From positions 21,641,291 through 21,705,290 of the forward strand of contig NC_081390.1 in assembly GCF_030684315.1 (NCBI RefSeq): a DNA stretch of 64,000 bases, given 5' to 3'. The notes under the pieces were generated by a model that was not told where the DNA came from, made no database searches, and saw only the letters and a list, made by a program, of their open reading frames with translations. How positions within the stretch are numbered: position 1 is the stretch's first letter; each line of letters opens with the position of its first letter. The stretch comes from Stegostoma tigrinum (Eukaryota). A program made the position numbers and the translations under genes. Shown in pieces: positions 19,642 through 63,429 of this stretch.

Positions 19642-19974
<333 letters not shown>

Positions 19975-20230
19975 AACCTCTGGTACCACTGCAATGATGC
20001 CATTTTAGACTCTGCTTTCTGATTCTTTATTGCTGCTACAGCACTACTGTTTCATAATGACTGGCAGGCAATTGCCGTTAAGGCTGACTGTGGCTGTAGA
20101 TTGCAATCAGCATTCACCAGTGAACTAGAAACCTCAAATTCTTTGAAAGGAAACTATGGACTAATGCTGCAATCTATGAGAATTTCTCTCCATATTTCAA
20201 AGTTTTGTAGAAACTATTTTTGTATTTGTA

Positions 20231-20236
20231 AATAAA
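20231..20236 (+). terminator. Candidate ECD polyadenylation signal AATAAA
   Basis: AATAAA about 260 nt after the ECD stop, preceded by U-rich TTTTTGTA. Confidence 0.5.
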
Positions 20237-20564
20237 TGCAATATCAGAACTTCTGAAATGATGACATGAAGAACAGAGCCATTTCATGAAACTCTCCAAC
20301 ATTGCACAGTAATTCAGAAAAAAATGACTTGCTGTAGAAGTCATCAATGTGTAAGTTGATTTGAGCAAGAATTCGAGTGCTGCAGTAGCCCTAAATAGCA
20401 ATGAGGTAAATAGGTGACCAATTTGGTTATCCTGGTTGAATGTAGATTTGGATTAAACTGAACAGATTTTGAATATACCATCTCCTTGAAAGAGTAGAAT
20501 CTTCAGTGTGCTCGCTATCTGAACATTACACTGAGATTCAGACTTCAATTTGAAGGTGATTATT

Positions 20565-21855
20565 TAGAACAATATAGTGCAGAACAGGCCCTTTGGCCCT
20601 CGATGTTGTGCCGACCCGTGAACTAGTCTAAGCACATCCCCCTACACTATCCCATCATCATCCATCTGCTTATCCAAGGACTGTTTATATGCCCCTAATG
20701 TGGCTGAGTTAACTACATCGGCAGGCAGGGCATTCCACGCCCTTACCACTCTCTGAGTAAAGAACCTGCCTCTGACATCTGTCTTAAATCTATCACCGCT
20801 CAGTTTGTACTATGCCCCCCTCATACAAGCTGAAGTCATCATCCTCGGAAAAAGACTCTCACTGTCCACCCTATCTAATCCTATGTCTCTATTAAATCCC
20901 CTGTTAGCCTCCTTCTCTCCAATGAGAACACACCCAAGTCCCTCAGCCTTTCTTCATAAGGCCTTCGCTCTCAACCAGGCAACATCCTGGTAAATCTCCT
21001 CTGCACCTTTTCCAATGTTTTCACATCCTTCCTGTAATGGGGCGACCAGAACTGCATGCAGTATTCCAAATGAGGCCGCACTACAGTTTTGTACAATTGC
21101 AGCATGACATCACGGCCCCGGAACTCAATCCCTCTACCAATAAAACCTAACACACCATATGCCACCTTAACAGCACTATCAACCTGGGTGGCAACTTTCA
21201 GGGATCTATGTACATGGACACCAAGATCCCTCTGCACATCCACACTACTAAGAATCTTTCCATTGACCCAGTATTCTGCCTTCCTATTATTCTTCCCAAA
21301 GTGACTCACCTCACATTTATCCACATTGAACTCCATTTGCCACCTTTCAGCCCAATTCTGCAGTTTACCAAGTCTCCCTGCAACCTGCAACATTCTTCCA
21401 CACTGTCCACCACTCCACCGACTTTAGTGACATCTGCAAACTTACTAACCCATCCACCTATGTCTGCGTCCATGTCATTTATAAAAATGACAAACAGCAG
21501 TGGTTCCAAAACAGATCCTTGAGGCACACCACTAGTAACTGGACTCCAGGCTGAATATTTTCCATCAACCACCACTCGTTGCCTTCTTACAGAAAGCCGT
21601 TTCTAATCCAAACTGCTAAATCTCCCTCAATCCTGTGCCTCTGCATTTTCTCCAATAGCCTACCATGTGGAACCTTATCAAAAGTTTTACTGACGTTCAT
21701 GTACACCATGTCAACTGCCCTTCCCTCATCCACATGCTTGGTCACCTGCTCCAAAAACTCAGTGAGGTTTGTGAGACACGACCTGCCCTTGGTGAACCCA
21801 CGTTGACTATCTCCAATCAAATTGTTGCTTGCTAGATGATTATAAATTCTATCTT
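20565..21855 (-). mobile_element. CR1-type LINE, RT domain plus 3' end
   Basis: ORFs 21587-21820, 21306-21575 and 20971-21393: [40 protein letters not shown]. Confidence 0.92.
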
Positions 21856-22063
21856 TACACTACAGTCAGGTATTGGCAGTCAGTTTGCTAAATAAACAGT
21901 GTGCTGGAGAAACTCGGCAGGTCTGGCAGCATCTGTGCAGAGAGAAACAGTTAACAATTTGAGTCTCGTATTGGGCTCAATGCTAACTGTTTCTGCTGCC
22001 AAACCTACTGTGTCTTTACAGCACATTTGATGCTGGAGATTTGAAATAAAAACACAGTATTTT

Positions 22064-22410
22064 GGGTGGCATGTTGGCACAGTGGGGATTAGCACTACTA
22101 CCTCAGAACACAAGGGACCCAGGTTCAACTCCAGCCTTGGGTGGCTATCAGTGTGGAATTTACATGCTGCCCCCGTGTCTGCATGGATTTCTGTCACGTT
22201 CCTCCAGCTTCCCCCCGCAATAGTTCAAAGATGTACAGGCTAAGTGGTCTGGCTGTGCTAAATTGTCCAGAGATGTGAATGCTAGTTGGATCAGCCGTGG
22301 GAAATGCAGGAGTATGGGGAGAGGGTGTTTAGGGTGAGTCAGGGTGGGCTGTTGTTTGGAGCATCAGCGCAGACTCTATGTTCTGAATGGCCTGTTTCTG
22401 TGACTCTATG
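22064..22410 (+). mobile_element. V-SINE (HE1-like) tRNA-derived SINE
   Basis: A/B boxes (ggcacagtgg; ggttcaactcc), V-domain tgtggaattt..ccccgtgtctgcatgg, CR1-like tail. Confidence 0.75.
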
Positions 22411-23384
22411 ATTTGTGCTTTTACATTATTACATATTGGGTCTGAGGTAAATGTATCACACGACACCTTTGCAGGTGAGTTACATTTTTATTCAGCAATT
22501 TACAGTTTGTGTAGTACGTCTGCAACATCACAATGCTGCTGAATTATTTCCCATAATTTCTCTGCATGTGCAGGTCTTGAGGACAATGTGGTAACAGATT
22601 ACTCAGAAAAAGGATTAAGGTGCAAAAACAGAAAATCTCAACGGGTCTGGCAGCATCTTCTTCTAAAGAAAGATCACTGGACTGAAACATTGACTCTGCT
22701 TTCTCTCCACAGATGCTGCTGGATCTGCTGAGTTTTTTACAGCAATCCCTGTTTTTATTTGTGACTTCCAGCATCACCAGTTGTTGTGTTTTTGTTTTTA
22801 TGAAAGGAGTTAAGCGGCTGATAAACCAAGACAGTGAAATACAGCACAAAAACAGACCCTTTGGGCCAACCAGTCCATGCCGACCCTAATCCCAAACTAA
22901 ACTCGTCCCACCTGCCTGCCCCTGGCCCATATCCCTCCAAATGTTTTCTATTCAGGTAGAGGTAAAAATGCAAGTATTTCCACTACATTTGGATTTATTT
23001 AAAAGCAAATAACATTTTCAACAATCGCTCTTTGCAACAATAAATGACAAAAACTTGCATTTAAGGTACAAAGGCTGAGTTCAGTACAGTTCTAAAGATA
23101 TTTACTTTATTAACTTTGTCCCTTTTCAAACTACCCTTTCAGTACTGAAGGGAAGATGCGACTATTTCTATGCACAAAGCTAAAATGGTGGGAGTTAATT
23201 TGGAAGATGTTTTTCTCTGATGGTTCATTTTTAATCCTATTCCTATTTAATTAAGACTTCCTGACCCAGAATGTCACAGGTTCAGGCTGATTTTAGTGCA
23301 AGTTTTGCGATCAGTCTTGGTACGTTTTAAGGAAAAATCTGGAAGATTTGCAAATGCAAATGTCAATGGCATATTGTGCCCAAG

Positions 23385-23780
23385 ACAACGGTGGCTCAGT
23401 GGCTAGCATTTGCCCCATCTGAAACAGAGGGTTGTGTTCAAGTCCCACTCCAGAAACCTGAGGGCAAAAATCTAGGGCTGTGACTTTAGTACAGTGCTGG
23501 GACAGTGCTGCAACATGCAGTCTCTCAACTGAGTCATTAAACTAATCCCCATCTCTCGGGTAAACAGGCAAGATCACCTCGCACTCTTGAAGAGCATTAG
23601 GGCTGTTCTGCATGGTTTTTTGGCCAAATGTATCCATTAATCAACATTTCACAAAGTGGAATATCTGGTCATTTATCGTGATTGTGGGAGGTTTGTGCAT
23701 AAACTTGCCTGGTTTCCTAAATACAACAAAATGTATCCCATTAGCTTGATCTTGTCAAAACTGCGATGTGAACGCAAGAC
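23385..23780 (+). mobile_element. Deu-domain SINE
   Basis: gtggctcagtgg...gttcaagtcccactccaga...tggccaaatgtatcc...atctggtcattt; same family as 17690-18150. Confidence 0.65.
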
Positions 23781-23957
23781 TTTAAGGCCATATGAGCAGC
23801 TTTACACCATTCAATAGTGAGGTTTGTACAGTGCATGGATAGTTGAACATGATACTGGAGAACTGTAGTCATGGAAATAGCAATATATCAACCTCCTTGG
23901 ATAAATCAAAAGGAAAATATTCCTGTGTTTTTTTTGTGTATATATAATGAGCAGTTT

Positions 23958-24472
23958 TCAGATTGTGTTGCACATCACTTCTTTCTTTCTTCCTGTATTC
24001 GGCTCCCACGCTTCTTTGTATATATAAATACTTACTCCACTGATACTGATGAGAAGGCTGGTGAGAAGTGGGAGTGAAAAAGTCCATTCTTGTGTGGAAA
24101 TGTTTCTTAGCATCAGTAGGTCTGTCTTTGCGACCTCAAAAATGTTCATCGTCAAGGCTGAACTCAGCAAGGTGCACAGAAGAACAAGAAAATTCAGCAA
24201 ACACCCAAACAGCAGCACCAAGGAGAAGAAGCCCAAAAAGATCAGACTGGACCAGCTGCCCGATGAGATGATCTGAGGAGTATCAGGATGGAGAAAGCAG
24301 TAAAGCAACAGCAGCGGACAGCTATTAATGCTACAAGTGTAGTAGACATCCACCACTGACTTCTTGTGGTCTTCACAGATTTCCTGGATCAATATGAGGT
24401 AAGTGCTCTTGAACACGAGGTTTAATACTCCATATGCATACACAAGAGCTTCATCATTGAAGTTCTGAGACC
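23958..24472 (-). CDS. SLC35D3-like transporter, coding exon 3 with stop
   Basis: tgcttag|GG TCT CAG AAC...TGA; YLILIQ...PLLLLYCF...W...LLFGCLLNFLVLLCTLLSSALTMNIFEVAK matches SLC35D 'YLVLIQ...GCAMNFTTLHCTYINSAVTT..VGVVK'; spliced CDS 174+295+515=984 nt, 327 aa, no internal stop. Confidence 0.87.
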
Positions 24473-26379
24473 CTAAGCAGGAACAAATTAGAACAATTCA
24501 CATTTAGAAAGCTGAATAAAGTAAATAGTTACTTTTCCTTTACCCTTTCACATTCCTCAAAACAAATCCATTTTTCAACCAAATTCTGAGTTGACAGTTG
24601 TCAGTGGCAGTGCGCATTTGGGTCATACTAAGAATGCAGTGAAGGCAAATGTAAAATGCTGAAAATTTTTAGGTAATTGGGTGACCCATAGTCTGTGAAC
24701 AGTACTGACATAACTAAGATTGAGCTTGATAAGAACTTAAGATTCTTGGTCATGCTACTAATTGTGACCTACTAATGTTGGGCAGCTGCCAACAAAGCTA
24801 ATTAAATGTTAACCAGAGCAATTCAAGCTGGAGGAAGTCGTGATCGAATTACGTAGTGCTGTGATATATCATCATCTTGAGAATGTGACTGGGACTGGAT
24901 ACATTCCTTTTGTGGAAAGGAGATGTAGAGAAGGGCCACCTTTGATCTCAACCGTCAGAGTAAATGGAGAAGCCAGGACTCTAGCTTTATGATGAGGTGA
25001 TCTTCCAATAAAGAACTCAACTTCTCAACCTCTCCCCTCACCTGAGGTACGGTGACTCTCAGGTTAAACCACCACCAGTCGTCTGTCTCTAACAAGTCAG
25101 TAACTTTATGGTCCTGTAGGACTATGGCACCCTCACCTCTATTTTACTGAAGGTTATATTTCTCAGGAAATTGGTGGATATATACACTTTATGTTGGTGT
25201 TGACAACAACTGAAAGAATATATAAGGTATGCAGGCAAAAACAGAACTGAGAAGGTGCTCCTTTTGCACAGAGTGATTGGTCCAGAAACATCAGGGGCAT
25301 GGGCTTTCGAATAAAAGACAACCCATAGACCAATAAATTGGATGCTGCAATGGGTAGTCTTGAGGGTGTGTTGGGTGCTCAATCTGGATGGCTGAACAAA
25401 GGCAAACCAATTAGCCTTCCTCATCCATAATTATGTTGTTATCAATAATTCTTGATATCCCACACAGCTGTATTTTTGACAATATCCTCTTATTGATCGA
25501 TTTTCCACATTTTTTGGGACGGAGAAGCTAGGCTACTGTGGAATACCCTCAGTGAGACAGGCTTCATTGTTACACATCTTGCTAAAAGAGGGTTCAGTAT
25601 CCTTTCAAATCACTGGCATGAGACAAAGGGAGGTTTGGTATTTGCCACAAAGGACAGAATATTATCCCTTTTATTGTCCTCAACTGGTCAAACAGACCAG
25701 TGGAATTTAACCCACATGGTTGATGATTAGCAATATTTTTTGGGTTACCATTATTAAAACTGGGAAGATGTAACTTTAGGTCCAAAGGCAATTTTAAGCA
25801 GATATTTAAAAAATTATAAATGCTGGTTGACATTTGTCAATTTGTTTACCAGTTCTTTTACAAACCTGATGAGAGAGATCATTGCTAAATTGTAACAGAC
25901 TTAAATGTTAATGTGTCTTCTCCCTTGCAATGTGCTCTTTATTTGCCAGTACTTTTTGTTCGAATTTCACTTTTTCACAATACTTAGAAAATGCCCTTTA
26001 AAGATTAAAGATACTCCATAGCATGAGTGATGAGTGATTAATCAATGAAAAGGCAAGTTCTAGCAGATGCTTGAGGGAGAGGAGTGTTGGTGTTATGGAA
26101 GGGCACTCCTGTATACAATGGCAGAAAGACCAAAACCTTATTACTGAAAATGGGATGGAATAAAAAGGGAACATAACTGACTCAAAAGCACAGACTGTAG
26201 AGTGTGGCTAGAAAATGATGTAGAGGTAGAATGTAAATTAGATGGTCATTTTTGAAATTACAGATTTGTATTTTTAGAAGTTTTATGTAGCAAAAGCTAA
26301 TTTGCAATGAATAACTTTGAAATACAGTGGTATACAAAGCTAGCTCATTTAGGATAGCTTATTCTTCAGTAAATCTTAC

Positions 26380-26674
26380 CTGCAAGAACTGAACACAAAG
26401 TGACCAGCAGCACCAAGAAAGTAGTGTTGGAGGATGTTCTTTTCTTCAAGTTGAATATTTCCATCAATGCCAAGGTGGCCAAGGGTGTAAACTGTCTGAT
26501 GAAATTGAAACCTATGGAGTTGGAGCTGGTCACAGCCCACAGGGTTAGAAGTGAATGAAAACTAAAACAAATAGAAGGAAGCAGGAAAGTCTCTCCACTC
26601 TCCAACGAGTAAGGCTGGATCTTTAACAGTCTGGCTTGGCTCAACAATTGCAACACCACAATGGTCAACAGAGC
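26380..26674 (-). CDS. SLC35D3-like transporter, coding exon 2
   Basis: tttgttag|GCT CTG TTG...CTT GCA G|gtaaga; ALLTIVVLQLLSQARLLKIQPYSL...HSLLTLWA...FIRQFTPLATL...LVTLCSVLA(G), similar to SLC35D3 'SSLTLWS...FKRCLPLVTM...LITTCGAALAG'; 295 nt, phase 0 to 1. Confidence 0.85.
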
Positions 26675-27254
26675 CTAACAAAACAAAGCACAATGAAACA
26701 GTACTGTGCCAAGGAACTTGTATTTACGTGCACAGAAAGTGTGAGAATTTTACATGCAATAGATTCCTTAAAAATGCAATGACTGTGAAGCACATTAAGT
26801 GGCTGTTTAATGCAGAGCAAGATCCGACAGATGACAATTAGATTAGTTGACGGCTTATCTTAGTGTTGTTTGAGGAAGGAAAATGGGACATGTCATTAGG
26901 ATGTTAGATTTTTTTTCTTGAACCTGTTTAGAGATGCTATTGTCCACCTCTTGAGCAGGTTGGACTTGTCGGCAGGCCTCTTGGCTCAGAGGTAGGGACA
27001 GTACCACTGCACCACAAGAATTCTGCACAAAGAGGCTAACTGCTGCTCAATTAATGTTTTTGACTTCCCATTAAAAGGCATTGAAGCATTGGTTTTCACT
27101 CTTCTCAGTTTAACTCCATACCGCACTGAACCAGTCACTCATTTTGTGAAGACTTAATTCTATAATGGAGGTCAAACCTCATTACTGCACCACTTAGGAA
27201 AATGTTTACTAAAGAACCACCATTCCTCTGAATCAAAATAGCATTCAAGTTTTT

Positions 27255-27930
27255 TTACAGTCATCTAGCACCGAGAGACCCTTTAGTCCAACTTATCCAT
27301 GCTGACCAAGTTGCCCAAACTAAATTAATCCCGTTTGCCTGCGTTTGCCCCTTTGAAATGTTTCCCATTTGTGCACCTGTCTTGTAAATTTGTAACTCTA
27401 CCTGATGTTCATTCCACATATGAACGATCCTCTGTGTGAAAATATTGTTCCTCAAGTCCCTTCTAAATTTTTCTCCTCTCACCTCAAATACATGCCCTCT
27501 ACTTTTGAATTCCCCAAACCTAGGTAAAAGACATTTGCTATTCATCTTACTCATCTCAATTTTATAAACCTCTGTAAGGTCACCCCTCAAACTTCTACAC
27601 TCCAGTGAAAGAAATGCCAGCCTCTCTGGCCTCTCCTTAAACACAAACCCTCCAGTCCTGGCAATATCCTGATAATCTTTTCAGTCCCTCTCCAGCCTAA
27701 TATACTTCCTACAGCAGGGTGACCAGAATTAGCCACAGTACTCCAAAAGAGGCCTCACCAACAATCTGTACAACCATACTAGGATGTCTTAATTCCTACA
27801 GTCAATGATCTGAGTATTGAAGGCAAGTATGCTAAGCACCTTCTTAACCAACCTGTCTACGTGTGGCATAACTTTCAAAGAACAATGTGCAGAAAACCCT
27901 GGATCTCTCAGTTTGCCAACACTACCCAGC
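27255..27930 (-). mobile_element. CR1-type LINE 3' fragment in intron of the SLC35D-like gene
   Basis: ORF 27261-27644: LRGDLTEVYKI...SRGH...FTQRIVHMWN. Confidence 0.85.
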
Positions 27931-28980
27931 AGATTCAGACATGTGGCTATCTCTGTAAGTAAGATGTGCTTCTTAGGGACCTCCTTGGGTTCAAGGATGA
28001 CTTAGTTCCACTGAAAATCAATGGGTTCTGAGCTGGCCAGTAAGTCCAACGCATCATCCGCAGACTCTGCCACACCTGGGGCAGCTGGCGCTTGCCAGCT
28101 TGGGTTGTGTGCTTCTTTCAAAGACCCCAACCTCACCTCTGCACATTCTCTCAGTGTGCTTGCTGCCTCCTGAATGAGCCTGGTCTATTTATGTTGGTCA
28201 CACATCAGTGCAGCCAAGGAACTGGGGGTAACATTCGATTTCTTCAGTGCTGTCTTCAGAACATCCCAAAAGTGCTGCTGCTATCCTCCTAGGAGTTTCC
28301 TGCCACAAGCCAGCCCCTGGATAGAGCAACCCATTCTCAGCACCATATAGCACTACTTACACAATTGGCACACAAACATGTGAAGGCGTGTAAGAGCCAG
28401 GAGCCCTGTCACTGGCTTCTCTGGTCATGGTACAGAGGAACCTCACACACCACCACGAATTATTTTCACCACATTGCCTCCAGCAGGTTGAAGAAATCTT
28501 CCCAAAGGCATTAGGCGATGGGGCAATAAACTCTGGCCTTGCCAAAGACTCCAAATCATAGCAGTGGGTAAAAGGAAAGCTAAAAGCCAAAACAAAATAA
28601 AGCTGCCACCAACATCAAGATACAAGCAGGGACGTTCTTCCCGGACTGTAAAAGATGATGAAGGCATGAATCTACCAACCATTGTAAAAAAAAAGCTTGA
28701 CCTATTTATCCCCATTAACCCATTATTAGGTCAATAGAAGTCCCACGATAACGACCAGAGGGTAAAAATTCAGGACTATGGAGTAAAAAGCAAGGCAGTA
28801 GAATTAATCCGGACACCCTATCGAAAAGCCGGAGCAGGTATAGCAGGCAGCATGTGCTTTACAGTTTGGTGATACTCTATTAAGGAGGAGGGATATAGAA
28901 TTCAGTCCCAATTCTTATCAGTAATGACAGCAGAGATGAAACTACAGGTCACAGAATGCAGTTCCCCTGGCTCTCCTAAC

Positions 28981-29154
28981 CTGGCAGAGGGCGATGAAAG
29001 CAGGGAAGCTGAAGCGGTACTGGTTGACGAAGACACCATTGAAGAACTCGGAGCAGCCGGAGCACAAGGTGTAAACAGCCCAGGGGCCCAACAACCAACA
29101 GCCGCACAGGAGCCAGCTGCCAGCAGAGTTCTGTACAGGGACTGCCGCTACCAT
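28981..29154 (-). CDS. Divergent SLC35D-family (SLC35D3-like) nucleotide-sugar transporter, coding exon 1
   Basis: ttccccag|G ATG GTA GCG...TGC CAG|gttagg; MVAAVPVQNSAGSWLLCGCWLLGPWAVYTLCSGCSEFFNGVFVNQYRFSFPAFIALCQ resembles SLC35D TM1-TM2 (Y..CS...N...YRF....Q); 174 nt, phase 0. Confidence 0.8.
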
Positions 29155-30261
29155 CCTGGGGAAGACCAATTGGTGTGCAATTAAAAATTAACTTCAAACT
29201 CATTTATAATGCAGCAGCAAAGCGGCAGCCTGCACTATCCGCACAGAACTTTAACCCCACTGCAGTCAACAATCTACAGGATACCGATCAACACTTGATA
29301 AGAAATAAGAAAAAATGCTCAAAAGTACCCAATTCTGTCAAAACCAATTAACACCGAGTGTGGTCTTGTCACAAAGCTATAAATACTTGAAAGAAAGGGG
29401 AAGAATTTAATTTTATATCGTGCCTTTAACAACTTCAGTAGGTCACAATTTGTCTATCCTTTTGGCCGTTTCTACATGACATCAGTAACCACATTTTGTT
29501 TGGTGTGAAGCACTTAGTAATACACAAATGCAGGCTCATGCTTGGTTCAGATGCTGACGAGTCTGCTTTGTACATGCAGAACCTTCTTAATTTCCATGGG
29601 GGAATGTGGCATTGATAGGCCTGTAGTAAAAATGAGTTTGGATTGTAATTTAACTATCACTTTATATTGTTTTCATAAGCTGGAGAGTTTAATAACAAAA
29701 TTCAATACTTTTAGCATAAGATATAGATAACTTGGTTCAGTTGAATCTCTTAATGAATATAAAGAGTGTAGGAGCACTCTTAAGAAAGAAATCCAGAAGG
29801 CAAAGAGGAGATATTAAATATCATTGGCAGATAAGGTTAGGGATAATCCAAAGAGATTCTACAAATACATTAAGAGCAAGAGGATAACTAGAGAGAGGTT
29901 TAGGCCCCGGATCAAGGGCAGCTCTGGACAGTGGTTTCCAGAGCTGGTGGCCATAGAGATCCACAGGTCAATCTGACTGCAGGACAGACCTGTGTTAGAT
30001 ATATTGGAGAGTCTGAATAAAGTCAGTATTAAGCCATGCTTCAAGTCAATCTCCTTGGACTTCTTAAGCTTATCCAGAGTTTATTATTGAGGCTGTAATT
30101 AATAGGGCAGAACTCCACTATGTTTGGGCGAACATGAAATAATAAAAAAACTGCATTAAAACATGTAGCCCATTTGGTGGCGTCTGTGGAGAAAGCAAAA
30201 CAGTTAATGTTTCAAGTTGATAATCTTTCTTCAGAGCTGGAAGTACCTAAAGATTTATACA

Positions 30262-39105: not shown

Positions 39106-39294
39106 TCAGGACGGCTGCTGACTTTCGGTCCATTCCTTGATTAGTTGATGTGCTACAGCCCATGGTGGTGGGATCCAGAATGGAACATCTCCCATTTCTT
39201 TCTTGGTGGGTACCCGCTTACGTTTTAAAGCTTCTGTTAGCTCCTTAGCATCAAACCAACGGGCATCCTCAAGCTCCGAATGGTGCAGGTCAAT
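39106..39294 (-). CDS. NUDT13: NUDT13 last coding exon with stop
   Basis: gactag|ATT GAC CTG...TCC TGA; IDLHHSELEDARWF...PFWIPPPWAVAHQLIKEWTESQQPS*. Confidence 0.93.
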   Translation of the reverse strand: MDLHHSELEDARWFDAKELTEALKRKRVPTKKEMGDVPFWIPPPWAVAHQLIKEWTESQQPS

Positions 39295-40752: not shown

Positions 40753-41802
40753 ATTAACAGACTCTTACCAATTTTTACAGATGCACCAGAGAAAACATTC
40801 TATCCGGATGCATCACGGCTTGATTATGGCAACTGCTGCCCATGACCGTAAGAAACTACAGAGAGCTGTGAACATAGCCCAATCTATCATGCAAGCCGAC
40901 CTTGCATCCATCAACTCCACCTATAACTTCTTGCAACCTCACGAAGGCAGCCAACATAATCAAAGAACTTTCCCATCCCAGCTATAATCTCTTCCAGCCT
41001 CTTTGGTTGGGCAGAAGATACAAAAGCTTAAACACATGTACCAATAGATTAAAGAACAGCTTCTTCTTCCCACTGTTAGTAGAGTCTGAATGGACATCTT
41101 GAATGTCAAACTGAATGGTGACCTTGCTGTTTGTGCACTTTCTCTGCAGCCATAACATTGTATTCCTCACTCTGTTCTATTACCCTAATGCACTTTGTAT
41201 GGTATGATATGCCTGCACTGCATGCAAAACAAAACTTTTCACTGTACCTAAGTACATGAGGCAATAATAAATCAAGATTATCCAGTAGCTATAGCCTTAT
41301 GCACAGCTAGCTCACTTAAAAACAACAAAGTGCTCATTGCATTTCCTACAAGTGGCTACATTTCAGTAGAAATGAATTTATTGGGAGTTTGAGAAGATAA
41401 AATAAAAACAAGTCTTTTTTAAATAGATAACTGACAAAAGTTATGTTGCATCAGACCCATGTCTTCCTGTTGCAAATTGCTCTTCACAGCATATACAGCG
41501 AAGGCACTAAGTGGAGACATAGAACAAGGCAAATAGAGTCAGCCTTAAGCAGTCCCGTTACCTGCTATCATTTTTTGTTTTACAGGACAACATTGGCAAA
41601 GCCACTGGAGGTGGTGTCAAATTTAGCAGCAGAGACAGGGCAATACAAAAGAATATAGAATAATCAAATAAACCAGAGGTTTCAGGGTAGATTTGGTAAC
41701 TACTTTCACTTTCCCCACATCTTTGATCAGGATGATATTTTGCAGAATCTTCACTACCATCGCCCCATTTTTTTTGCTCCCCATCAATTTGACACAACTT
41801 AC

Positions 41803-41957
41803 CTTGTTCTGCCCTGGTTGTACCATTGCATGGCAAGCAATCATCAGTGAGCTGTTAGGAAAAGGCCAGTGCTGGGATGCAGAATACTCAAGCGAAGATA
41901 TTTCCAAACCAACTTCCTCTGCAACCTCCCGTTGCACTGAGTCCTCCACAGTCTCCC
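41803..41957 (-). CDS. NUDT13: NUDT13 exon: Nudix box and NudC signature
   Basis: tcccag|GG GAG ACT...AAC AAG|gtaagt; GETVEDSVQREVAEEVG plus SQHWPFPNS. Confidence 0.97.
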
Positions 41958-43617
41958 CTGGGAAAGGAGGAGAAAGGATTTACGATTCACGATTCAACAT
42001 CTGTGACTGAAACAAATTTGTTGCAAATCAGATTTAAAGTATGATTGCCAATTCAGCAGGCAGGGATCGTGAACCAGGGTACCATTTCTTTACAAAAAGA
42101 GAGGGAAAATATACTTTGGCCATTCTCTGGTACCTTTACTGGGTGTCAGCAGTCATACAGGGCCTTGACTTGGTGGCTTATGTGTGCAATGATATATGGT
42201 GGACGGGATTGGGGATGGCGAGACAACCAGAGAAAGTATAAGACTCTCTTCATCTTATTGGTTACATTTTCATACCTACGTAGGAATCCGAATCAAGATG
42301 TGCAGCAGTCCTGAAATTGTGTGCTAATGCAGCAAACTTTGAACATTTTCACTTCTGCTCTTTTTGTTTTCACTTTCTCTTTATTGTTTATCTTTTAATT
42401 TTGTCTTCTCTTTTGCATATCTAGTATTTCTTCCCAGTTCTCCATTTAGATTTCCTTTTTTCCTTAAAAATTATGGGGATATGCCATTAAAAAAAATTGG
42501 CTTTAGCAAAAGGAAGTATAATTCAAATTTTACAGATGACATTAAATTGGAACTAAAGTGAATATGTAGGAAAGCTGTGATGAAAGTACAAGATGACATT
42601 AATAAACTTGAGATATTGAGGTATGAAGAGTGTAGGTTTTTGAATGAATTTCACTACAGTGAAGTGTTACATTTTGGTAATAAAAAGACCTCGGGGTACT
42701 GATGGATAAATTACAAAAAAAAAGCACATTGTGGGAAATAGCCAAGAATTTGTTTATTTACATATGGTGAGAATTAGAAAACAGCAAAGCTATGTTAAAC
42801 TTGCACTGAACCTTGGTTAGAATACAGCTGGAATAATGTACACAGATGTGGAAAGGGTATGGAGACACTGTAGAAATAGTAATAAAAATTCACAGAATGA
42901 CACCAGAAATGAGGCAACTTACTCATCTAGAAAGGCTGAAGAGATTTTTTTTAAAAAATGGGAAAGGGAAGTCAGAGGGTGACTACATGGATAAAAAGGG
43001 ATTTGAGCGTGTAGAAATATTTACATATATTTAAGAGAATATATGTTTTATCTTGTACAGAGACCCAAACTACAGGTGCTAAATATAATAGTGACCTTTA
43101 AATTCAATTAAGAATTCAGCAGAAACCTCTTTACCGGAAGTACGATTTCAATATGGAACCACTGTAAGGAGTAATTGAAATGAATGGCGTCAATGGATTT
43201 GAGGGGTAACTGGATAAACACCCTGAGGGGGGTGAGGAATAAAGGATATGCTAATCGGGTTACAGTGGGGTGGTAGTTGAAGGAGTTTGTTCTGAGCACA
43301 AATATGAGAACAGATCAGTTTATGGACCTGTTGGGCTAAGTGGCCTATATTCAGTTTGTGATTATGTGTCTATTATTTCTCATCAGCCACAAGTTTTCCA
43401 TCTCAAGCATGCTGCCAGCCAAAGAGAGAAGTGAGAAGCCAGAAAGTCACGCACAAGGAAACTGTCTTCATGAATCACCTTATTGAGTCTCCTTCCAAAC
43501 AAATCACAAAAAGGCTATTGGACATATCCAGGTGACATAAATAACAAAAGCCCATCCATGTGGGTACATTTCACGTAAACCTACAGTGATACCTAGTGTA
43601 CCAGAAAGGCTAATTAC

Positions 43618-45365: not shown

Positions 45366-45431
45366 CTAAAACATATCCATTATTGTCTTGACATTTCCAG
45401 ACAGTCTGAACTGAAGTACAAGCACAGACTG

Positions 45432-48285
45432 AAACCACAGTTGTGTGGTGGCCATTTCGGAGACATGGATAGAGCAGGGACAGGAATGGTTGTTGCAGGT
45501 TCCGGGATTTAGATGTTTCAGTAAGAACAGAGAAGATCATAAAAGAGGGGGAGGTGTGGCATTGTTTGTCAAGGACAGTATTACAGTTGCAGAAAGGATG
45601 TCTGGGGACTCGTCAACTGAGGTAGTATGGACAGAGGTTAGAAACAGGAAAGGAGGTCACCCTGTTGGGAGTTTTCTATAGGCCTCCAAATAGTTCCAGA
45701 TATGTAGAGGAAAGGATAGCAAAGATGATTCTCGATAGGAGTGAGAGAGACAGGGTAGTTGTCATGGGGGACTTCAACTTTCCAAATAATGACTGGGAAC
45801 ACTATAGTTCGAGTACTATAGATGGGTCAGTTTTTGTCCAGTGTGTGCAGGAAGGCACAGTATGTAGATAGGCTAACAAGGGGCGAAGCCACATTAGATT
45901 TGGTACTGGGTAATGAGCCTGGCCAGGTGTTAGATTTGGAAGTAGGTGGGCACTTTGGTGATAGCGATCACAATTCTGTTATGTTTACTTCAGTGATGGA
46001 AAGGGATAGGTGTATACCACTGGGCAACAGTTAGAGCTGGGGGAAAGGCAATTACGATGAGATTAGGCAAGATTTAGGGACCACAGGATGGGGAAGGAAA
46101 CTGCAGGGGATGGGCACATTAGAAATAGAACATAGAACAGTACAGCACAGAACAGGCCCTTCAGCCCACAATGTTGTGCCGACCATTGATCCTCATGTAT
46201 GCACCCTCAAATTTCTGTGACCAATGTGGAGCTTATTCAAGGAAAAGCTCCTGTGTGTCCTAGATAAGTATGTACCTGTCAGGCAGGGAGGAAGCATCAG
46301 AGCGCGGGAGCCGTGGTTTACAAAGGAAGTGGAATCTCTGGTCAAGAGGAAGAAGGCGGCTTATGTTAGGATGAGATGTGAAGGCTCAGTTAGGGCGCTT
46401 GAGGGCTACGAGGTAGCCAGGAAAGACCTAAAGAGAGAGCTCAGAAGAGCCAGGAGGAGACATGAGAAGTTGTTGGCGGATAGGATCAGGGTAAACCCTA
46501 AGGCCTTCTACAGGTATTTAAGGAATAAAAGAATGATGAAACTAAGATTAGGGCCAATCAAGGATAGTAGTGGGAAGTTGTGTGTGGAGTCAGAGAAGAT
46601 AGGGGAAGCACTAAATGAATATTTTTCGACAGTATTCACTCTAGAAAACGACAATGTTGTCGAGGAGAATACTGAGATACAGGCTACTAGACTAGGTGGG
46701 ATTGAGGTTCACAAGGAAGAGGTATTAGAAATCCTACAGAGGGTGAAGATAGATAAGTCCCCTGGGCCGGATGGGATTTATCCTAGAATCCTCTGGGAAG
46801 CCAGGGAGGAGATTGCTGAGCCTTTGGCATTGATCTTTAACATTGTCTACAGGAATAGTGCCAGATGACTGGAGGATAGCAAATGTAGTTCCCCTGTTCA
46901 AGAAGGGGAGTAGAGACTGGTAATTATAGTCCAATGAGCCTTACCTCAGTTGTTGGCAAAGTGTTGAAAAAGGTTATAAGGGATAGGATTTATAATCATC
47001 TGGAAAAGAATAAATTGATTAGGGATAGTCAGCACTATTTTGTGAAGGTTAGGTTGTGCCTCACAAACCTTATTGAGTTCTTTGAGAAGGTGACCAAACA
47101 GGTAGATGAGTGTAAACCGGTTGATGTGGTGTATATGGATTTCAGCAAGGCATTCGATAAGATTCCCCACAGTAGGCTATTGTACAAAATGCGGAGGAAT
47201 GAGATTGTGGGAGATATAGCTGTTTGGATAGGAAATCGGCTTGCTGAAAGATGACAGAGGGTGGAAGTTGATGGGAAATGTTCATCCTGGAGACCAGTTA
47301 CTAGTGGTGTACCACAAGGGTCGGTGTTGGGTCCACTGCGGTTTGTCATTTATAAAAATGACCTGGGGTTGAGGGCATAGTAGGATTGGTTAGTAAATTT
47401 GCAGACGACACTACGGTCGGTGGAGTTGTGGATAGTGACAAAGGATGCTGTAGGTTACAGACAGACATAGATAAGCTGCAGAGCTGGGCTGAGAGGTGGC
47501 AAATGGAGTTTAATGCGGACAAGTGTGAGGTGATGCACTTTGGTAGGAGTAACCAGAAGGCAAAGTACTGGGCTAATGGTAAGATTCTTGATAGTGTAGA
47601 TGAGCAGAGAGATCTCAGTGTCCATGTACACGGATCCTTGAAAGTTGCCGCCCAGGTTGACAGGGCTGTGAAGAAGGCATACAGTGTTTTAGCTTTTATT
47701 AATAGAGGGATCGAGTTCCGGAACCAAGAGGTTATGCTGCAGCTGTACAAAACTCTGGTGCAGCCGCACTTGGAGTACTGCATACGGTTCTGGTCACCGC
47801 ATTATAAGGAGGATGTGGAAGCTTTGGAAAGGGTGCAGAGGAGATTTACTAGGATGTTGCCTGGTATGGAGGTAAGGTCTTACGAGGAAAGGCTGAGGGA
47901 CTTGAAGCTGTTTTCGTTAGAGAGAGAAAGGTTGAGAGGTGACTTAATTGAGACATATAAAATAATCAGAGAGTTAGATAGGGTGGATAGGGAGAGCCTT
48001 TTTCCTAGGACGGTGACGGCGAACACGAGGGGGCATAGCTTTAAATTGAGGGATGAAAGATATAGGAGAGATGTCAGAGGTAGTTTCTTTACTCAGGGAG
48101 TAGTAAGGGAATGGAACGCTTTGCCTGCAACAGTAGTAGATTCGCCAACTTTAAGTACATTTAAGTCATCATTGGACAAGCATATGGACGTACATGGAAT
48201 AGTGTAGGTTAGACGGGCTTCAGATTGTTATGACAGGTTGGCACAACATCAAGTGTCAAAGGACCTGTACTGTGCTGTCATGTTC
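45432..48285 (+). mobile_element. CR1-type LINE with most of ORF2 (APE endonuclease plus RT), frameshifted
   Basis: VAISETW, GGGVAL, YRPPNS, VMGDFN, SDHN (endonuclease); KSPGPDGIYP, DFSKAFDK, GVPQGS, SKFADD (RT); intact 3' tail. Confidence 0.95.
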
Positions 48286-54837: not shown

Positions 54838-56610
54838 GTGCAGACCGGGGCGGGGTTGGGTGGAGCGGGGCGGGTCAGACGGGGCTGGGGTGGTGTGGGG
54901 GTGGTCAGACGGGGCTGGGGTGGGTCAGACGAGGGTGGGCTGGGGTTGGGGAGTGTCAGACGGGCGTAGGGTGGTGGCGGGGGGGGTGTCGGTTGGGGTG
55001 GGGGTGGGGGTGGGGGTGGGGGCGGGGGTGTCGGGTGGGGGGCGGGGGCAGGGGGTGTCGGGTGGGGGCGGGGGCAGGGGGTGTCGGGTGGGGGCGGGGG
55101 CGGGGGTGTCGGGTGGGGGCGTCGGGTGGGGGCGGGGGCGGGGGTGTCGGGTGTCAGACGGGGGCGGGGGTGTCGGGTGTCAGACGGGGGCGGGGGTGTC
55201 GGGTGTCAGACGGGGGCGGGGGCGGGGGCAGGGGGTGTCGGGTGTCAGACGGGGGTGGAGGGTTTCAGACGGGGGTGGAGGTGGAGGGTGTCAGACAGGG
55301 GTGGACGGGGACGGGGACGGGGGGGGGGGGGTGTCAGACAGGGGTAAACTGGGATGGGGGTGGACTGGGATGGGGGTGGGGGGGTGTCAGACGGGGGTGG
55401 ACTGGGGGGTGTCAGACGGGAGCGGACTGGGGTGGGGTGGGGTGTGTCGGGTGGGGTGGGGGTGGGGGTGGGGGGTGTCAGACGGGGCTGAGGTGGGGGG
55501 TGTCAGACGGGGGTGCGCTGGGGTGGGGATGGGGGTGTCAGACGGGGTGGGCTGTCAGACACGGGGTNNNNNNNNNNNNNNNNNNNNNNNNNNNNNNNNN
55601 NNNNNNNNNNNNNNNNNNNNNNNNNNNNNNNNNNNNNNNNNNNNNNNNNNNNNNNNNNNNNNNNNNNNNNNNNNNNNNNNNNNNNNNNNNNNNNNNNNNN
55701 NTGGGCTGGGGTGGGGGGGTGTCAGACGGGGCTGGGCTGGGGTGGGGGGGGGTCAGACGGGGCTGGGCTGGGGTGGGGGGGGGTCAGACGGGGCTGGGTT
55801 GGGGTGGGGGGGGTCAGACGGGGCTGGGTTGGGGTGGGGGGGGTCAGACGGGGCTGGGTTGGGGTGGGGGGGGTCAGACGGGGCTGGGTTGGGGTGGGGG
55901 GGGGTCAGACGGGGCTGGGTTGGGGTGGGGGGGGGGTCAGACGGGGCTGGGTTGGGGTGGGGGGGGGTCAGACGGGGCTGGGTTGGGGTGGGGGGGGGTC
56001 AGACGGGGCTGGGTTGGGGTGGGGGGGGGTCAGACGGGGCTGGGTTGGGGTGGGGGGGGGGTCAGACGGGGCTGGGTTGGGGTGGGGGGGAGTCAGACGG
56101 GGCTGGGTTGGGGTGGGGGGGAGTCAGACGGGGCTGGGTTGGGGTGGGGGGGAGTCAGACGGGGCTGGGTTGGGGTGGGGGGGAGTCAGACGGGGCTGGG
56201 TTGGGGTGGGGGGGGTCAGACGGGGCTGGGTTGGGGTGGGGGGGGGGGTGTCAGACGGGGCAGGGCTGGGGTGGGGGGGTCAGACGGGGCAGGGCTGGGG
56301 TGGGGGGGTCAGACGGGGCAGGGCTGGGGTGGGGTGGGGGGGTCAGACGGGGCAGGGCTGGGGTGGGGTGGGGGGGTCAGACGGGGCTGAGGTGGGGGGG
56401 TCAGACGGGGCTGAGCTGGGGTGGGGGGGGTCAGACGGGGCTGAGCTGGGGTGGGGGGGGTCAGACGGGGCTGGGGGGGGGGTCAGACGGGGCTGGGGGG
56501 GGGGGGTCAGACGGGGCTGGGGGGGGTCAGACGGGGCTGAGCTGGGGGTGGGGGGGTCACACGGGGGGTGGGGAGGTTCAGACAGGGCTGGTGTGAGGGG
56601 GGGGTGGGGG
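54838..56610 (+). repeat. G-rich minisatellite, ~30-bp unit GTCAGACGGGGCTGGGTTGGGGTGGGGGGG with variants
   Basis: Direct reading of tandem units; regular after the gap, more degenerate (GTCGGGT variants) before it. Confidence 0.95.
55568..55701. other. Assembly gap (134 N)
   Basis: Run of n inside the minisatellite. Confidence 0.99.
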
Positions 56611-59847: not shown

Positions 59848-61960
59848 CAGAGAACAAAGAAAATTACAGCGCGGGAACAGGCCCTGCAGCCCTCCAAGCC
59901 TGCGCCAATCGAGATCCTCTGTCTAACCTGTCATCTATTTTCTAACGGTCTGTGTCCATTTGCTCCCTGCCCATCCATGTACCTGTCCGGATACATCTTA
60001 AAAGACGCTAACGTGTCTGCGTCTACCACCTCCGCTGGCAACGCGTTCCAGGCACCCACCACCCTCTGTGTAAAGAACTTTCCACGCATATCTCCCTTAA
60101 ACTTTCCTCCTCTCACTTTGAACTCATGACCCCTACTAATTGAGTCCCCCACTCTGGGGAAAAAAGCTTTTTGCTATCCACCCTGTCTATACCCCTCATG
60201 ATTTTGTAGACCTCAATCAGGTCCCCCCTCAATCTCTGTCTTTCTAATGAAAATAATCCTAATCTACTCAACCTCTCTTCATAGCTAGCACCCTCCATAC
60301 CAGGCAACATCCTGGTGAACCTCCTCTGCACCCTCTCCAAAGCATCCACATCCTTTTGGTAATGTGGCGACCAGAACTGTACACAGTACTCCAAATGTGG
60401 CCGAACCAAAGTCCTATACAACTGTAACATGACCTGCCAACTCTTGTACTCAATACCCCGCCCAATGAAGGAAAGCATGCCATATGCCTTCTTGACCACC
60501 CTATTGACCTGCTTTGTCACCTTCAGGGAACAATGGACCTGAACACCCGGATCTCTCTGTTCATCAATTTTCCCTAGGACTTTTCCATTTACTGTATAGT
60601 TCTCACTTGAATTTGATCTTCCAAAATGCATCACCTCACATTTGCCCAGATTGAACTCCATCTGCCATTTATCTGCCCAACTCTCCAGTCTATCTATATT
60701 CTGCTGTAATCTCTGACAGTCCCCTTCACTATCTGCTACTCCACCAATCTTAGTGTCATCAGCAAACTTGCTGATCAGACCACCTACACCTTCCTCCAAA
60801 TCATTTACATATATCACAAACAACAGTGGTCCCAGTGGAACACCACTGATCACAGGTCTCCAATTTGAGAAACTCCCTTCTACTACTACTCTCTGTCTCC
60901 TGTTGCCTAGCCAGTTTTTTATCCATCTAGCTAGCACACCCTGGACCCCATGTGACTTCACCTCTCCATCAGCCTGCCATGGGGAACGTTATCAAACGCC
61001 TTACTGAAGTCCATGTATATGACATCTACAGCCTTTCCCTCATCAATCAACTTTGTCACGTCCTCAAAGAATTCTATTAAGTTGGTAAGACATGACCTTC
61101 CCTGTACAAAACCATGTTGCCTATCACTGATAAGCCCATTTTTTTCCAAATGGGAATAGATCCTATCCCTCAGTATCTTCTCCAGTAGCTTCCCTACCAC
61201 TGACGTCAGGCTCACCGGTCAATAATTACCTGGATTATCCTTGCCACCCTTCTTAAACAAGGGGATAACATTAACAAATCTCCAGTCCTCCGGGACCTCA
61301 CCCGTGTCTAAGGATGCTGCAAAGATATCTGTTAAGGCCCTGGCTATTTCCTCTCTCGCTCCTCTTAGTAACCTGGGATAGATCCCAGCCGGACCTGGGG
61401 ATTTGTCCATTTAATGTCTTTTAGGATACCCAACACTTCCTCCTTCCTTATGTCAACTTGACCTAGAGTAAGCAAACATCTGTCCTTAACCTCAACATCT
61501 GTCATGTCCCTCTCCTTGGTGAATACCAATGCAAAGTACTCGTTAAGAATGTCACCCATTTTCTCTGACTCAGCGCATAACTTTACTTCTTTGTCCTTAA
61601 GTGGGCCAGTCCTTTCTCTAGTTACCCTCTTGGTCTTCATATATGAATAAAAGGCTTTGGGATTTTCCTTAACCATGTTTGCCAGCAATATCTCATGTCC
61701 TCTCTTAGCCCTCTTAATGCCTTGTTTCTGACTCTCCCTACATTCCCGATATTCTTGCAAAGCTTTGTCTGTCTTCAGTCGCCTAGACCTCATGTATGCT
61801 TCCTTTTTCCTCTTGGCTAGTCTCATAATTTCACCTGTCATCCATGGTTCCTTAATCTTGCCATTTCTATTCCTCATTTTCACAGGAACATGTCTCTCCT
61901 GCACGCTAATCGACCTCTCTTCAAAAGCCTCCCACATATCAAATGTGGATTTACCGTCAA
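59848..61960 (-). mobile_element. Relatively young 5'-truncated CR1-type LINE, nested in an older repeat
   Basis: ORFs 61365-61970, 61219-61410, 60958-61215, 60113-60961 (ISKFADDTK) and 59931-60152; the flanks 59760-59847 and 61961-62310 are two halves of another repeat. Confidence 0.95.
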
Positions 61961-63429
61961 AGACATCCACAGTGCTGCTAGGGAGGGATGTTGACTCACC
62001 AGAACTGAAAGAATTTTCAGGATGGTGTGTGACTTAGAGAGGAAATTGCAGGTAGGGGTGTTCCCATGTATCTGTTGCCTTTAAATTTCCAGGTGATAGT
62101 GTGTGAGTTTAGAAGGTGCAGTCTCAGCAGCCTTGGTGAATTCCTGCGGTATGCCTTGTAGATGGTACACACTGCTGCTACTGAGTGTCATTGGTGGAGG
62201 GAGTGAATGTCTGTGGATGTGGTTTTAATCAAACAGGCTGAATTGGCCTGGATGTTGTTAATCTTCTTAATTGTTGTTGGAGCAATGTTCATCAAACTGA
62301 GTAATCCATCACGTTCACAGTAATGTTAATCTTTCCAGTTACAATACAGCACATTTTGTAATCTTGCATTCGTATTTTGAAATGTGATCAAAATTTCAGG
62401 TTTGAGTGCCTTTCAGATCCATCTCTTTCATTGGCAGGATTATGCTGTAATGTGAATCCTACCCTGAAATATTCTTATAAATTGTAATGGACTTTGCCAA
62501 AAAAAAGTCCTGTGACTTGGCAGAATGATTGTATAGGTGGCAGTGAGAAAATGAGAGGAACAGAACCATTGTTAAGGTAACTGGAATAAAAAAGAAAGGA
62601 AAATGAATAATGGTGCAAATACTCAAAAGGCCAAGCAGCATTCGCAGAGCGAGAAATAGAGCTATGGTGTTGGTTGAGGACCTTTAATCAGAACTGTTCT
62701 GACAGTAATCTGAAATGTTACTTTTCTTCCTCTATCCATAGATGCTGCCATCATTTTGCTATTTTTAGTTTACATTGTATTTTTGTTTGTCCTGGGGGCA
62801 ATAGAATAATGAGTTTATCAAAGGAGAGGATTGACCAAGTGTACGCAAATAAGTAAAGAGGACATGGGTTAATTGCAGCTATGGACGGACCAACCTGATG
62901 ATCGTCCAGTTGCCTTTGGAAGTTGAAGTATTTTCCAGAGATTTTCTGTTCATGCGTTGTGTTTATTTCTTTATCTCTCCATTCATTAGTACTAATGATT
63001 TAGATTGGGACTCAACATGGATAGGGTCAAAATTATTGGACTTTCGTAATTCCTTTCCCGTTTTTGCATTATCAGTTGTATCAAGGTACTAGTCCTCTAT
63101 CAGAATAGTGCTGGTGTATCATCAAAAGTAGTTAATGTACTCACACATATAAAAGTTTTTAAGACTAAGCTTTTATTCGAAAAGTATGGGTTCAATATAT
63201 ACACAAGTAGCATTTTGGAAAGATTGAAATCCATCCCTTTCCTTTGCCTTGCTCTCGTAGAGCTGCTAGATCAGAGACCGAACCCGCCAACTCCACACCC
63301 AAATGTAGCGCAAAAGGTGCCAAAGAACATGCATGACAGCAGGGACTGAACAGCTGCCTTCATTGGTGTACTGTTGTGTAATTCTAGCAAGTAAATATGC
63401 ACCAGGGTGAGGTTAACTGTAAAACCAAA

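Follow-up and report, generated by a model that had tools for sequence, protein, structure and literature searches.

Structure of the gene and its place in the locus

The window analyzed here, a 64,000-nucleotide (nt) stretch of the Stegostoma tigrinum genome whose positions serve as coordinates throughout, carries on its minus strand a three-exon gene for a multi-pass membrane protein. Almost certainly, this carpet-shark gene is orthologous to si:ch211-248a14.8 and constitutes a second gene of the SLC35D3 subfamily in vertebrates, separate from SLC35D3 proper. Its coding sequence of 984 nt specifies 327 amino acids (aa) and the stop codon. Coding exon 1 (28981..29154, 174 nt) encodes residues 1-58, comprising the N-terminus, the first transmembrane helix (TM1) and the start of TM2. 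Coding exon 2 (26380..26674, 295 nt) covers residues 59-157 with TM2-TM5, and the coding part of exon 3 (23958..24472, 515 nt) covers residues 157-327 with TM6-TM10, a short tail and a TGA stop codon. Intron 1 (26675..28980, 2306 nt, phase 0) and intron 2 (24473..26379, 1907 nt, phase 1, inside Gly157) are both of the GT-AG type, with GT donors and polypyrimidine-AG acceptors.

This splicing of three open reading frame (ORF) pieces into 327 residues, with phases 0 and 1, had been proposed in a preliminary description. An open frame is by itself weak evidence, since 2,314 of 231,000 nearby GT/AG combinations likewise read through to the same stop codon. The exact splice sites are fixed by a related protein and a transcript-like contig. 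Over 326 aa, the encoded protein shares 88.7% identity with the RefSeq protein XP_072439615.1 of Chiloscyllium punctatum. In a single 398-nt contig of sequencing run X1 (contig 4), 26445-26673 is followed directly by 28980-29148, so that intron 1 is skipped and exon 1 joined to exon 2 at the junction 28981^26674, one base over. Both the proposed model and this junction are therefore supported, the latter by a run that is RNA by the tool's guess only and whose source is another, related organism, the two contig pieces showing 8 and 9 differences. Unlike X1, the DNA-like run X2 gives unbroken pieces across the introns. The junction 26380^24472 does not appear among the listed X1 pieces. The gene had also been described as intact, and this holds: the frame is open across sharks, rays and chimaera, which rules out a pseudogene.

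Downstream of the stop codon lies a probable 3' untranslated region of ~1.5 kb (22470..23957, minus strand, end approximate), based on X1 contigs 3 (22888-24468, which also covers coding exon 3) and 2 (22411-22707), both at depth 17. AATAAA signals are located at 23111, 22999, 22759 and 22492, the last of them near the downstream end of the X1 coverage. At the other end, a further ATG (29201..29203, minus strand) precedes the main ATG by 49 nt. In the window this ATG is out of frame, off by one base, whereas the models of Rhincodon and Chiloscyllium plagiosum have it in frame and gain 16 aa from it. Since a pyrimidine-rich AG is in addition positioned immediately 5' of the main ATG (window 29154-29203, minus strand), the sequence suggests that the added 16 aa are not genuine and that the gene may have a non-coding 5' exon. 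Intron 2 is apparently an ancestral intron of the SLC35D3 subfamily, situated at the end of TM5. Among 147 related database ORFs, 20 end at profile positions 157-163, mostly just past the Gly, and position 157 is also where a D3-like fragment (P0137) begins; such an age is thus read indirectly, from ORF ends.

The gene is flanked by ECD and NUDT13, as had been proposed. It is arranged tail to tail with ECD, whose last coding stretch (19723..19974, plus strand, start approximate) ends with a stop codon at 19974, X1 contig 1 covering 19769-20560. NUDT13 shares the strand of the gene and lies ~10 kb upstream, with its last coding exon at 39106..39294 (minus strand). Pfam SGT1 matches on the upstream ECD exons and a NUDIX match on the preceding NUDT13 exon (41779-41979) identify the two neighbours.

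Relationship to SLC35D3 and the wider SLC35 family

Orthologues are found in sharks, rays, chimaera, coelacanth, paddlefish, bichirs, bowfin, teleosts and two lampreys. The window protein is 94% identical to a partial Rhincodon (whale shark) model, 88% to the Hemiscyllium model, 59% to the chimaera protein and 49% to that of coelacanth. NCBI labels for these proteins range over 'SLC35D3', 'SLC35D3-like', 'UDP-galactose/UDP-glucose transporter 7', 'uncharacterized' and 'si:ch211-248a14.8', the last being used in Hemiscyllium, Rhincodon, Mobula, Polyodon, Erpetoichthys, Polypterus, Brienomyrus and Nothobranchius. By sequence and by tree they represent the same gene, forming one clade; the zebrafish-type gene was compared through these named relatives rather than through the zebrafish protein itself. 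One Pristiophorus model (P0005) has a reverse-transcriptase fragment fused to its N-terminus, probably a gene-model artefact.

A profile search recovered 532 relatives at E<=0.001, and the best matches outside the clade are invertebrate-type TPT proteins. Among the matches listed, the best non-vertebrate proteins score up to 145 bits, versus 96 and 89 bits for true SLC35D3. The search against all representatives gives the best 150 of the 532 matches, with Latimeria and Callorhinchus lacking rows of their own. The phylogeny was calculated with IQ-TREE (C20) from 42 rows picked out of 101, including SLC35D3 from coelacanth, reedfish and perch and 16 invertebrate-type rows, and not including named D2 or TMEM241. 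In this tree, the new clade extends from lamprey to teleosts with support of 100/99 and roughly tracks the species tree, and the SLC35D3 clade has support of 100/100. The new clade, SLC35D3 and the 16 invertebrate-type rows together form a group supported at 98/99, with the D1-like rows outside. As judged from these sequences, an old animal subfamily with invertebrate members contains both the new gene and SLC35D3. A FastTree analysis joined the clade to nematode-like rows (0.55); this was treated as long-branch noise, and those rows are absent from the 42-row tree.

Most shark and ray RefSeq models are named 'solute carrier family 35 member D3', so the window gene could be read as a plain shark SLC35D3. 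We regard this reading as barely tenable. Forcing the cartilaginous-fish copies into the SLC35D3 clade is rejected by the approximately unbiased (AU) test (p-AU 6.3e-5), a test of a hypothesis from the preliminary description that was run after the tree had been inspected. Moreover, both genes are present in Latimeria and in Erpetoichthys, and the window protein is 20-24% identical to true SLC35D3 rows. The genomic neighbourhood also differs: canonical SLC35D3 flanks the IFNGR1/IL20RA/IL22RA2 cluster in the available text of PMC5332411, and the window neighbours, ECD and NUDT13, do not match the SLC35D3 surroundings of IL20RA, IL22RA2, IFNGR1 and OLIG3. Joining the whole clade with SLC35D3 as one vertebrate clade against the invertebrates was not recovered in the tree and was not rejected (p-AU 0.44). 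The identification is weakened by the D1-like outgroup, whose label rests on our recognition of an eel protein and not on a named record, and by the fact that no separate shark SLC35D3 turned up, although no search was aimed at one.

The two genes nevertheless resemble each other as members of one subfamily. Both keep the TM9 Lys and may share the intron at Gly157, and the two Latimeria proteins, 24% identical, are colinear without gaps over 279 aa. SLC35D3 differs by its separate clade, its other locus, its much slower evolution, a Gly rather than a Glu before the TM9 Lys and a long C-terminal tail. The window protein ends 55 residues past K272 and has 327 aa in total, versus 356-442 aa in SLC35D3 rows. 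The earlier view of an old paralogue, related to SLC35D3 without being its orthologue and lacking the long tail, is thus upheld. The coelacanth SLC35D3-like model (P0186) has only 356 aa, with a tail shorter than that of the perch protein (P0057, 442 aa). These relationships expose an annotation trap, in that the name 'SLC35D3' has been given to another gene in many entries from sharks and rays; comparative studies of SLC35D3 in platelet dense granules, dopamine neurons and the loading of uridine diphosphate (UDP)-glucose would be led astray by them.

A role as an SLC35D1-like supplier of UDP-glucuronic acid (UDP-GlcA) and UDP-N-acetylgalactosamine (UDP-GalNAc) for cartilage glycosaminoglycans, suggested previously, is not borne out and appears highly improbable. 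SLC35D1, SLC35D2 and TMEM241 belong to the same wider SLC35D family, and among the Atlas look-alike clusters, headed by the UTR7 family, 'SLC35D1' comes second at 0.98. However, the role is unsupported because the protein falls in the SLC35D3/invertebrate subfamily, apart from the D1-like rows. In addition, its TM7 and TM9 motifs differ from those of the D1-like row, the gene is retained in bony fishes too, and no expression link to cartilage was seen.

The invertebrate 'UDP-galactose/UDP-glucose transporter 7'-like proteins (Strongylocentrotus XP_030835363.1, Capitella, Montipora, Tigriopus and Caligus) are the best non-vertebrate matches among those listed, with a mean identity of 26%. They keep the motifs N-K, Y-x-x-x-K-R and T-T-S-x-x-G-x-x-K and pass Pfam TPT, whereas the vertebrate clade does neither. 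Their function is an automatic name only, and a search of the literature did not confirm the activity of plant UTR7. More broadly, SLC35D3-type proteins with fully canonical motifs and automatic names only are widespread in invertebrates (P0034-P0050: coral, copepods, annelid, sea urchin and others), and the fly and worm rows in the accessible part of the PMC9333335 tree include no such partner of SLC35D3. The same family holds a nematode-type group (P0078, P0127, P0156 and P0174). In one of these, from Aphelenchoides, the lysines of TM1 and TM9 are likewise missing, which may reflect degeneration in parallel.

No publication on the name si:ch211-248a14.8, or on the paralogue by title or abstract, was found in a search that most subscription papers lie outside of. 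In the available part of a seven-species hidden Markov model survey that includes zebrafish, no such name occurs in the SLC35 tree, where one Danio entry beside TMEM241 carries no name (PMC9333335). This absence may be because the clade fails Pfam TPT. The locus is modelled in public databases under a zebrafish-type clone name. The gene, previously called undescribed, is so in the sense that no paper naming it was found, and not in the sense of being unrecorded, as RefSeq models with the name si:ch211-248a14.8 exist in many fishes. Our analysis adds a fish-wide SLC35D paralogue absent by name from the accessible SLC35 tree of PMC9333335.

Predicted fold, binding pocket and possible transport

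The AlphaFold2 model of an 89%-identical orthologue (P0001), calculated with a 121-row alignment, is all-helical and has a predicted local distance difference test (pLDDT) score of 92 and a predicted template modelling (pTM) score of 0.90; with the 11-row alignment only, the pLDDT is 34. The best Foldseek matches, all with probability 1.0, are TPT, Vrg4, SLC35B1 and CST (TM-score 0.60-0.74), and LicB is also found among the matches. The model shows that the shark protein is predicted to have the complete 10-helix fold seen in the superfamily of drug/metabolite transporters (DMT) and in the nucleotide-sugar transporters (NST), in agreement with the multi-pass NST layout initially recognized. 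Membership in DMT/SLC35 is based on profile chaining together with this fold, because the family-profile check that had been suggested gave no Pfam TPT, EamA or UAA match above the curated cut-off. EamA matches below threshold occur in 6 of 11 rows, with a best E of 6.7e-5, and a search of PDB sequences with the shark profile gave 0 matches at E<=0.01.

In the available text of PMC13342644, transport by Vrg4 requires Tyr28, Ser32, Lys118 and Lys289, and the roles of the TM4 and TM9 lysines in CST are discussed in PMC6508934. Despite 11-14% identity, Vrg4, TPT, SLC35B1 and CST line up with the shark protein at Tyr28, Ser32 and the TM4 and TM9 basic residues. The essential Vrg4 residues map to Y28 and S32 (TM1), R118 (TM4, a conservative change) and K272 (TM9) of the window protein. 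Y28, F114 and K272 are invariant in cartilaginous fishes, where K272 is present in 22/22 rows and a basic residue occupies position 118 or 119 in all 22.

Given this arrangement, we infer that the shark protein would be a nucleotide(-sugar) antiporter of the secretory pathway. It would be located in Golgi, endoplasmic reticulum or secretory-vesicle membranes, where a cytosolic nucleotide or UDP-sugar would enter the lumen in exchange for a nucleotide through alternating access, the ligand being held by Y28/S32, R118 or R119, and K272. For SLC35D3, a putative role in carrying UDP-glucose into vesicles has been reported (PMC8373376). Taken jointly, the identity of the gene and this mechanism, with a specificity shifted in sharks and a protein degenerating in bony fishes, have about an even chance of being right.

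Several observations weigh against this reading. The mapping of the pocket is approximate, as the family TM9 Lys aligns one position before Lys289 of Vrg4. Pfam TPT recognizes none of the 11 clade rows and none of 8 vertebrate rows, versus 13/13 invertebrate-type rows. At position 118, 3/22 cartilaginous-fish rows carry Gln or Gly, and coelacanth, paddlefish and bichirs have a non-basic residue. A Lys at position 40 is found in 80/86 outside rows versus 3/21 cartilaginous-fish rows. Position 36 is acidic in 20/21 cartilaginous-fish rows and in 1/86 outside, and position 269, a Gly in 76/86 outside rows and acidic in none of the 86, is Glu in 20/22 cartilaginous-fish rows. Finally, invariance across 16 cartilaginous fishes extends to only 4 of the 14 positions mapped to the pocket, compared with 94 of 283 background positions.

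The motifs around the pocket have changed as well. In sharks, Y-T-C-S/T and E-V-A-K-T stand in place of the motifs FYNN and GALNK, and the (F/Y)xN motif of TM7 is lost through replacement of its Asn by Cys (C203) in all 22 cartilaginous-fish rows. A shifted specificity or a lower rate is the probable consequence of E36, E269 and the missing TM7 Asn; the two acidic residues are placed on the ligand side from helical spacing, not from coordinates. SLC35D3 likewise lacks the TM7 Asn and keeps the Gly before the TM9 Lys. In the 16 invertebrate-type rows, 63 columns are near-invariant; the window protein retains 32 of them and SLC35D3 retains 37, which puts the two at a similar distance from the ancestral pattern.

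A protein of this kind might still be a carrier re-purposed for a neutral or cationic small solute instead of an anionic nucleotide-sugar. Other DMT-fold proteins move such solutes, including the choline importer LicB and SLC35F members. LicB is one of the fold matches, the acidic residues at 36 and 269 are clade-specific and would lie on the TM1 and TM9 ligand faces, K40 is lost and the TM7 Asn has become an invariant Cys. The retention of K272 and of the TM4 base argues against such a change, as do the spacing-based placement of E36/E269 and the replacement of E269 by Val in two Mobula rows and by Lys in bichirs. We consider this change of substrate unlikely.

Somewhat more weight, although still well short of the antiporter reading, is given to a pseudo-transporter, in which the fold would be kept for scaffolding or regulation (as an SLC35 partner, in receptor trafficking or in organelle biogenesis) and the ligand site would be occupied by E269 paired with K272. 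The pocket is no better conserved than the background, and among the invariant blocks is the stretch 217-237 of TM7-TM8, which is not part of the mapped pocket. In addition, PMC6709370 discusses proposals that SLC35A4 and SLC35D3 act as modulators. Conversely, cartilaginous fishes keep Y28, F114 and K272 invariant and the TM4 base always present, and SLC35D3 is equally off-consensus (His at 28, Ile at 203), yet transport has been reported for it.

Divergence in bony fishes and taxonomic range

The gene evolves fast. Coelacanth and reedfish copies are 36.5% identical, compared with 63.5% for SLC35D3 of the same two fishes, and four neopterygian-type rows retain 13 of the 63 ancestral columns. 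Eleven neopterygian-type rows were compared among the matches listed, three of them from bowfin, Brienomyrus and Nothobranchius and the other eight placed by their resemblance to teleost rows. Ten of the 11 end 10 residues past position 272, before TM10 (P0036, P0040, P0051, P0052, P0065, P0076, P0091, P0105, P0147 and P0171, of bowfin and teleost type), including seven of the eight teleost-like rows. None of the 11 has Lys at 272, and six have Arg. The shark copy is thus full length, unlike the neopterygian copies of si:ch211-248a14.8, which are without TM10 and the TM9 Lys. TM10 is present in paddlefish and bichirs, and the pattern looks like a single truncation in the neopterygian ancestor. 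A missed exon is argued against by the shortened ending being common to these rows, which are predicted proteins.

Without TM10, the neopterygian copies probably no longer transport by an antiporter mechanism. Both the rapid divergence and the persistence of the gene in these fishes, despite the missing TM10 and the absent Lys at 272, are in line with the pseudo-transporter. A more far-reaching history is possible, and we put it forward tentatively. It would comprise a hitherto unrecognized fifth vertebrate SLC35D-type gene with an early exit from nucleotide-sugar transport, the acquisition by jawed fishes of acidic residues within the cavity, and the neopterygian loss of TM10, giving a 9-helix DMT protein with broken symmetry and a new job, either as a pseudo-transporter or as a carrier of another solute. 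The shark protein would be the intact intermediate, and the gene would be lost in tetrapods. Whichever reading applies, the canonical pocket of invertebrates, the altered pocket of sharks and the TM10 loss of teleosts form a graded natural series for how a transporter changes its substrate or stops. The gene does not represent a novel type of system, and a zebrafish knockout is directly feasible.

No tetrapod or lungfish member occurs among the best 150 of the 532 matches, where a similarly conserved lungfish or amphibian copy could sit hidden in a shark cluster. A third search, with a word index, also gave no tetrapod protein; it is weak evidence, since 8 of the 12 query rows themselves were missed. 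Human NUDT13 and ECD are presumably adjacent, with no such gene between them. Ecd and Nudt13 are consecutive in the accessible part of a duck candidate-gene list that includes LOC identifiers (PMC13255704), the list being assumed to follow positional order. Human and pig gene lists, which are not full annotations, agree with this adjacency (PMC4388690, PMC12115691). The gene was likely lost in amniotes. The earlier proposal of a loss in mammals is consistent with the lack of any tetrapod copy in these searches, and stops short of proof because of their blind spots and its partial reliance on the duck list and the presumed human locus.

In the surrounding sequence, no Rfam match was found within window positions 19-40 kb. 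Decayed reverse-transcriptase fragments resembling long interspersed nuclear elements (LINEs), together with high-copy short repeats, occupy 20400-23200, 27264-28000, 45400-48204 and 60000-62033, and thereby fall inside intron 1 and between the 3' end of the gene and ECD. Farther away, a G-rich minisatellite with a 31-bp unit in at least 25 copies (54851-56605) surrounds a 134-N gap.

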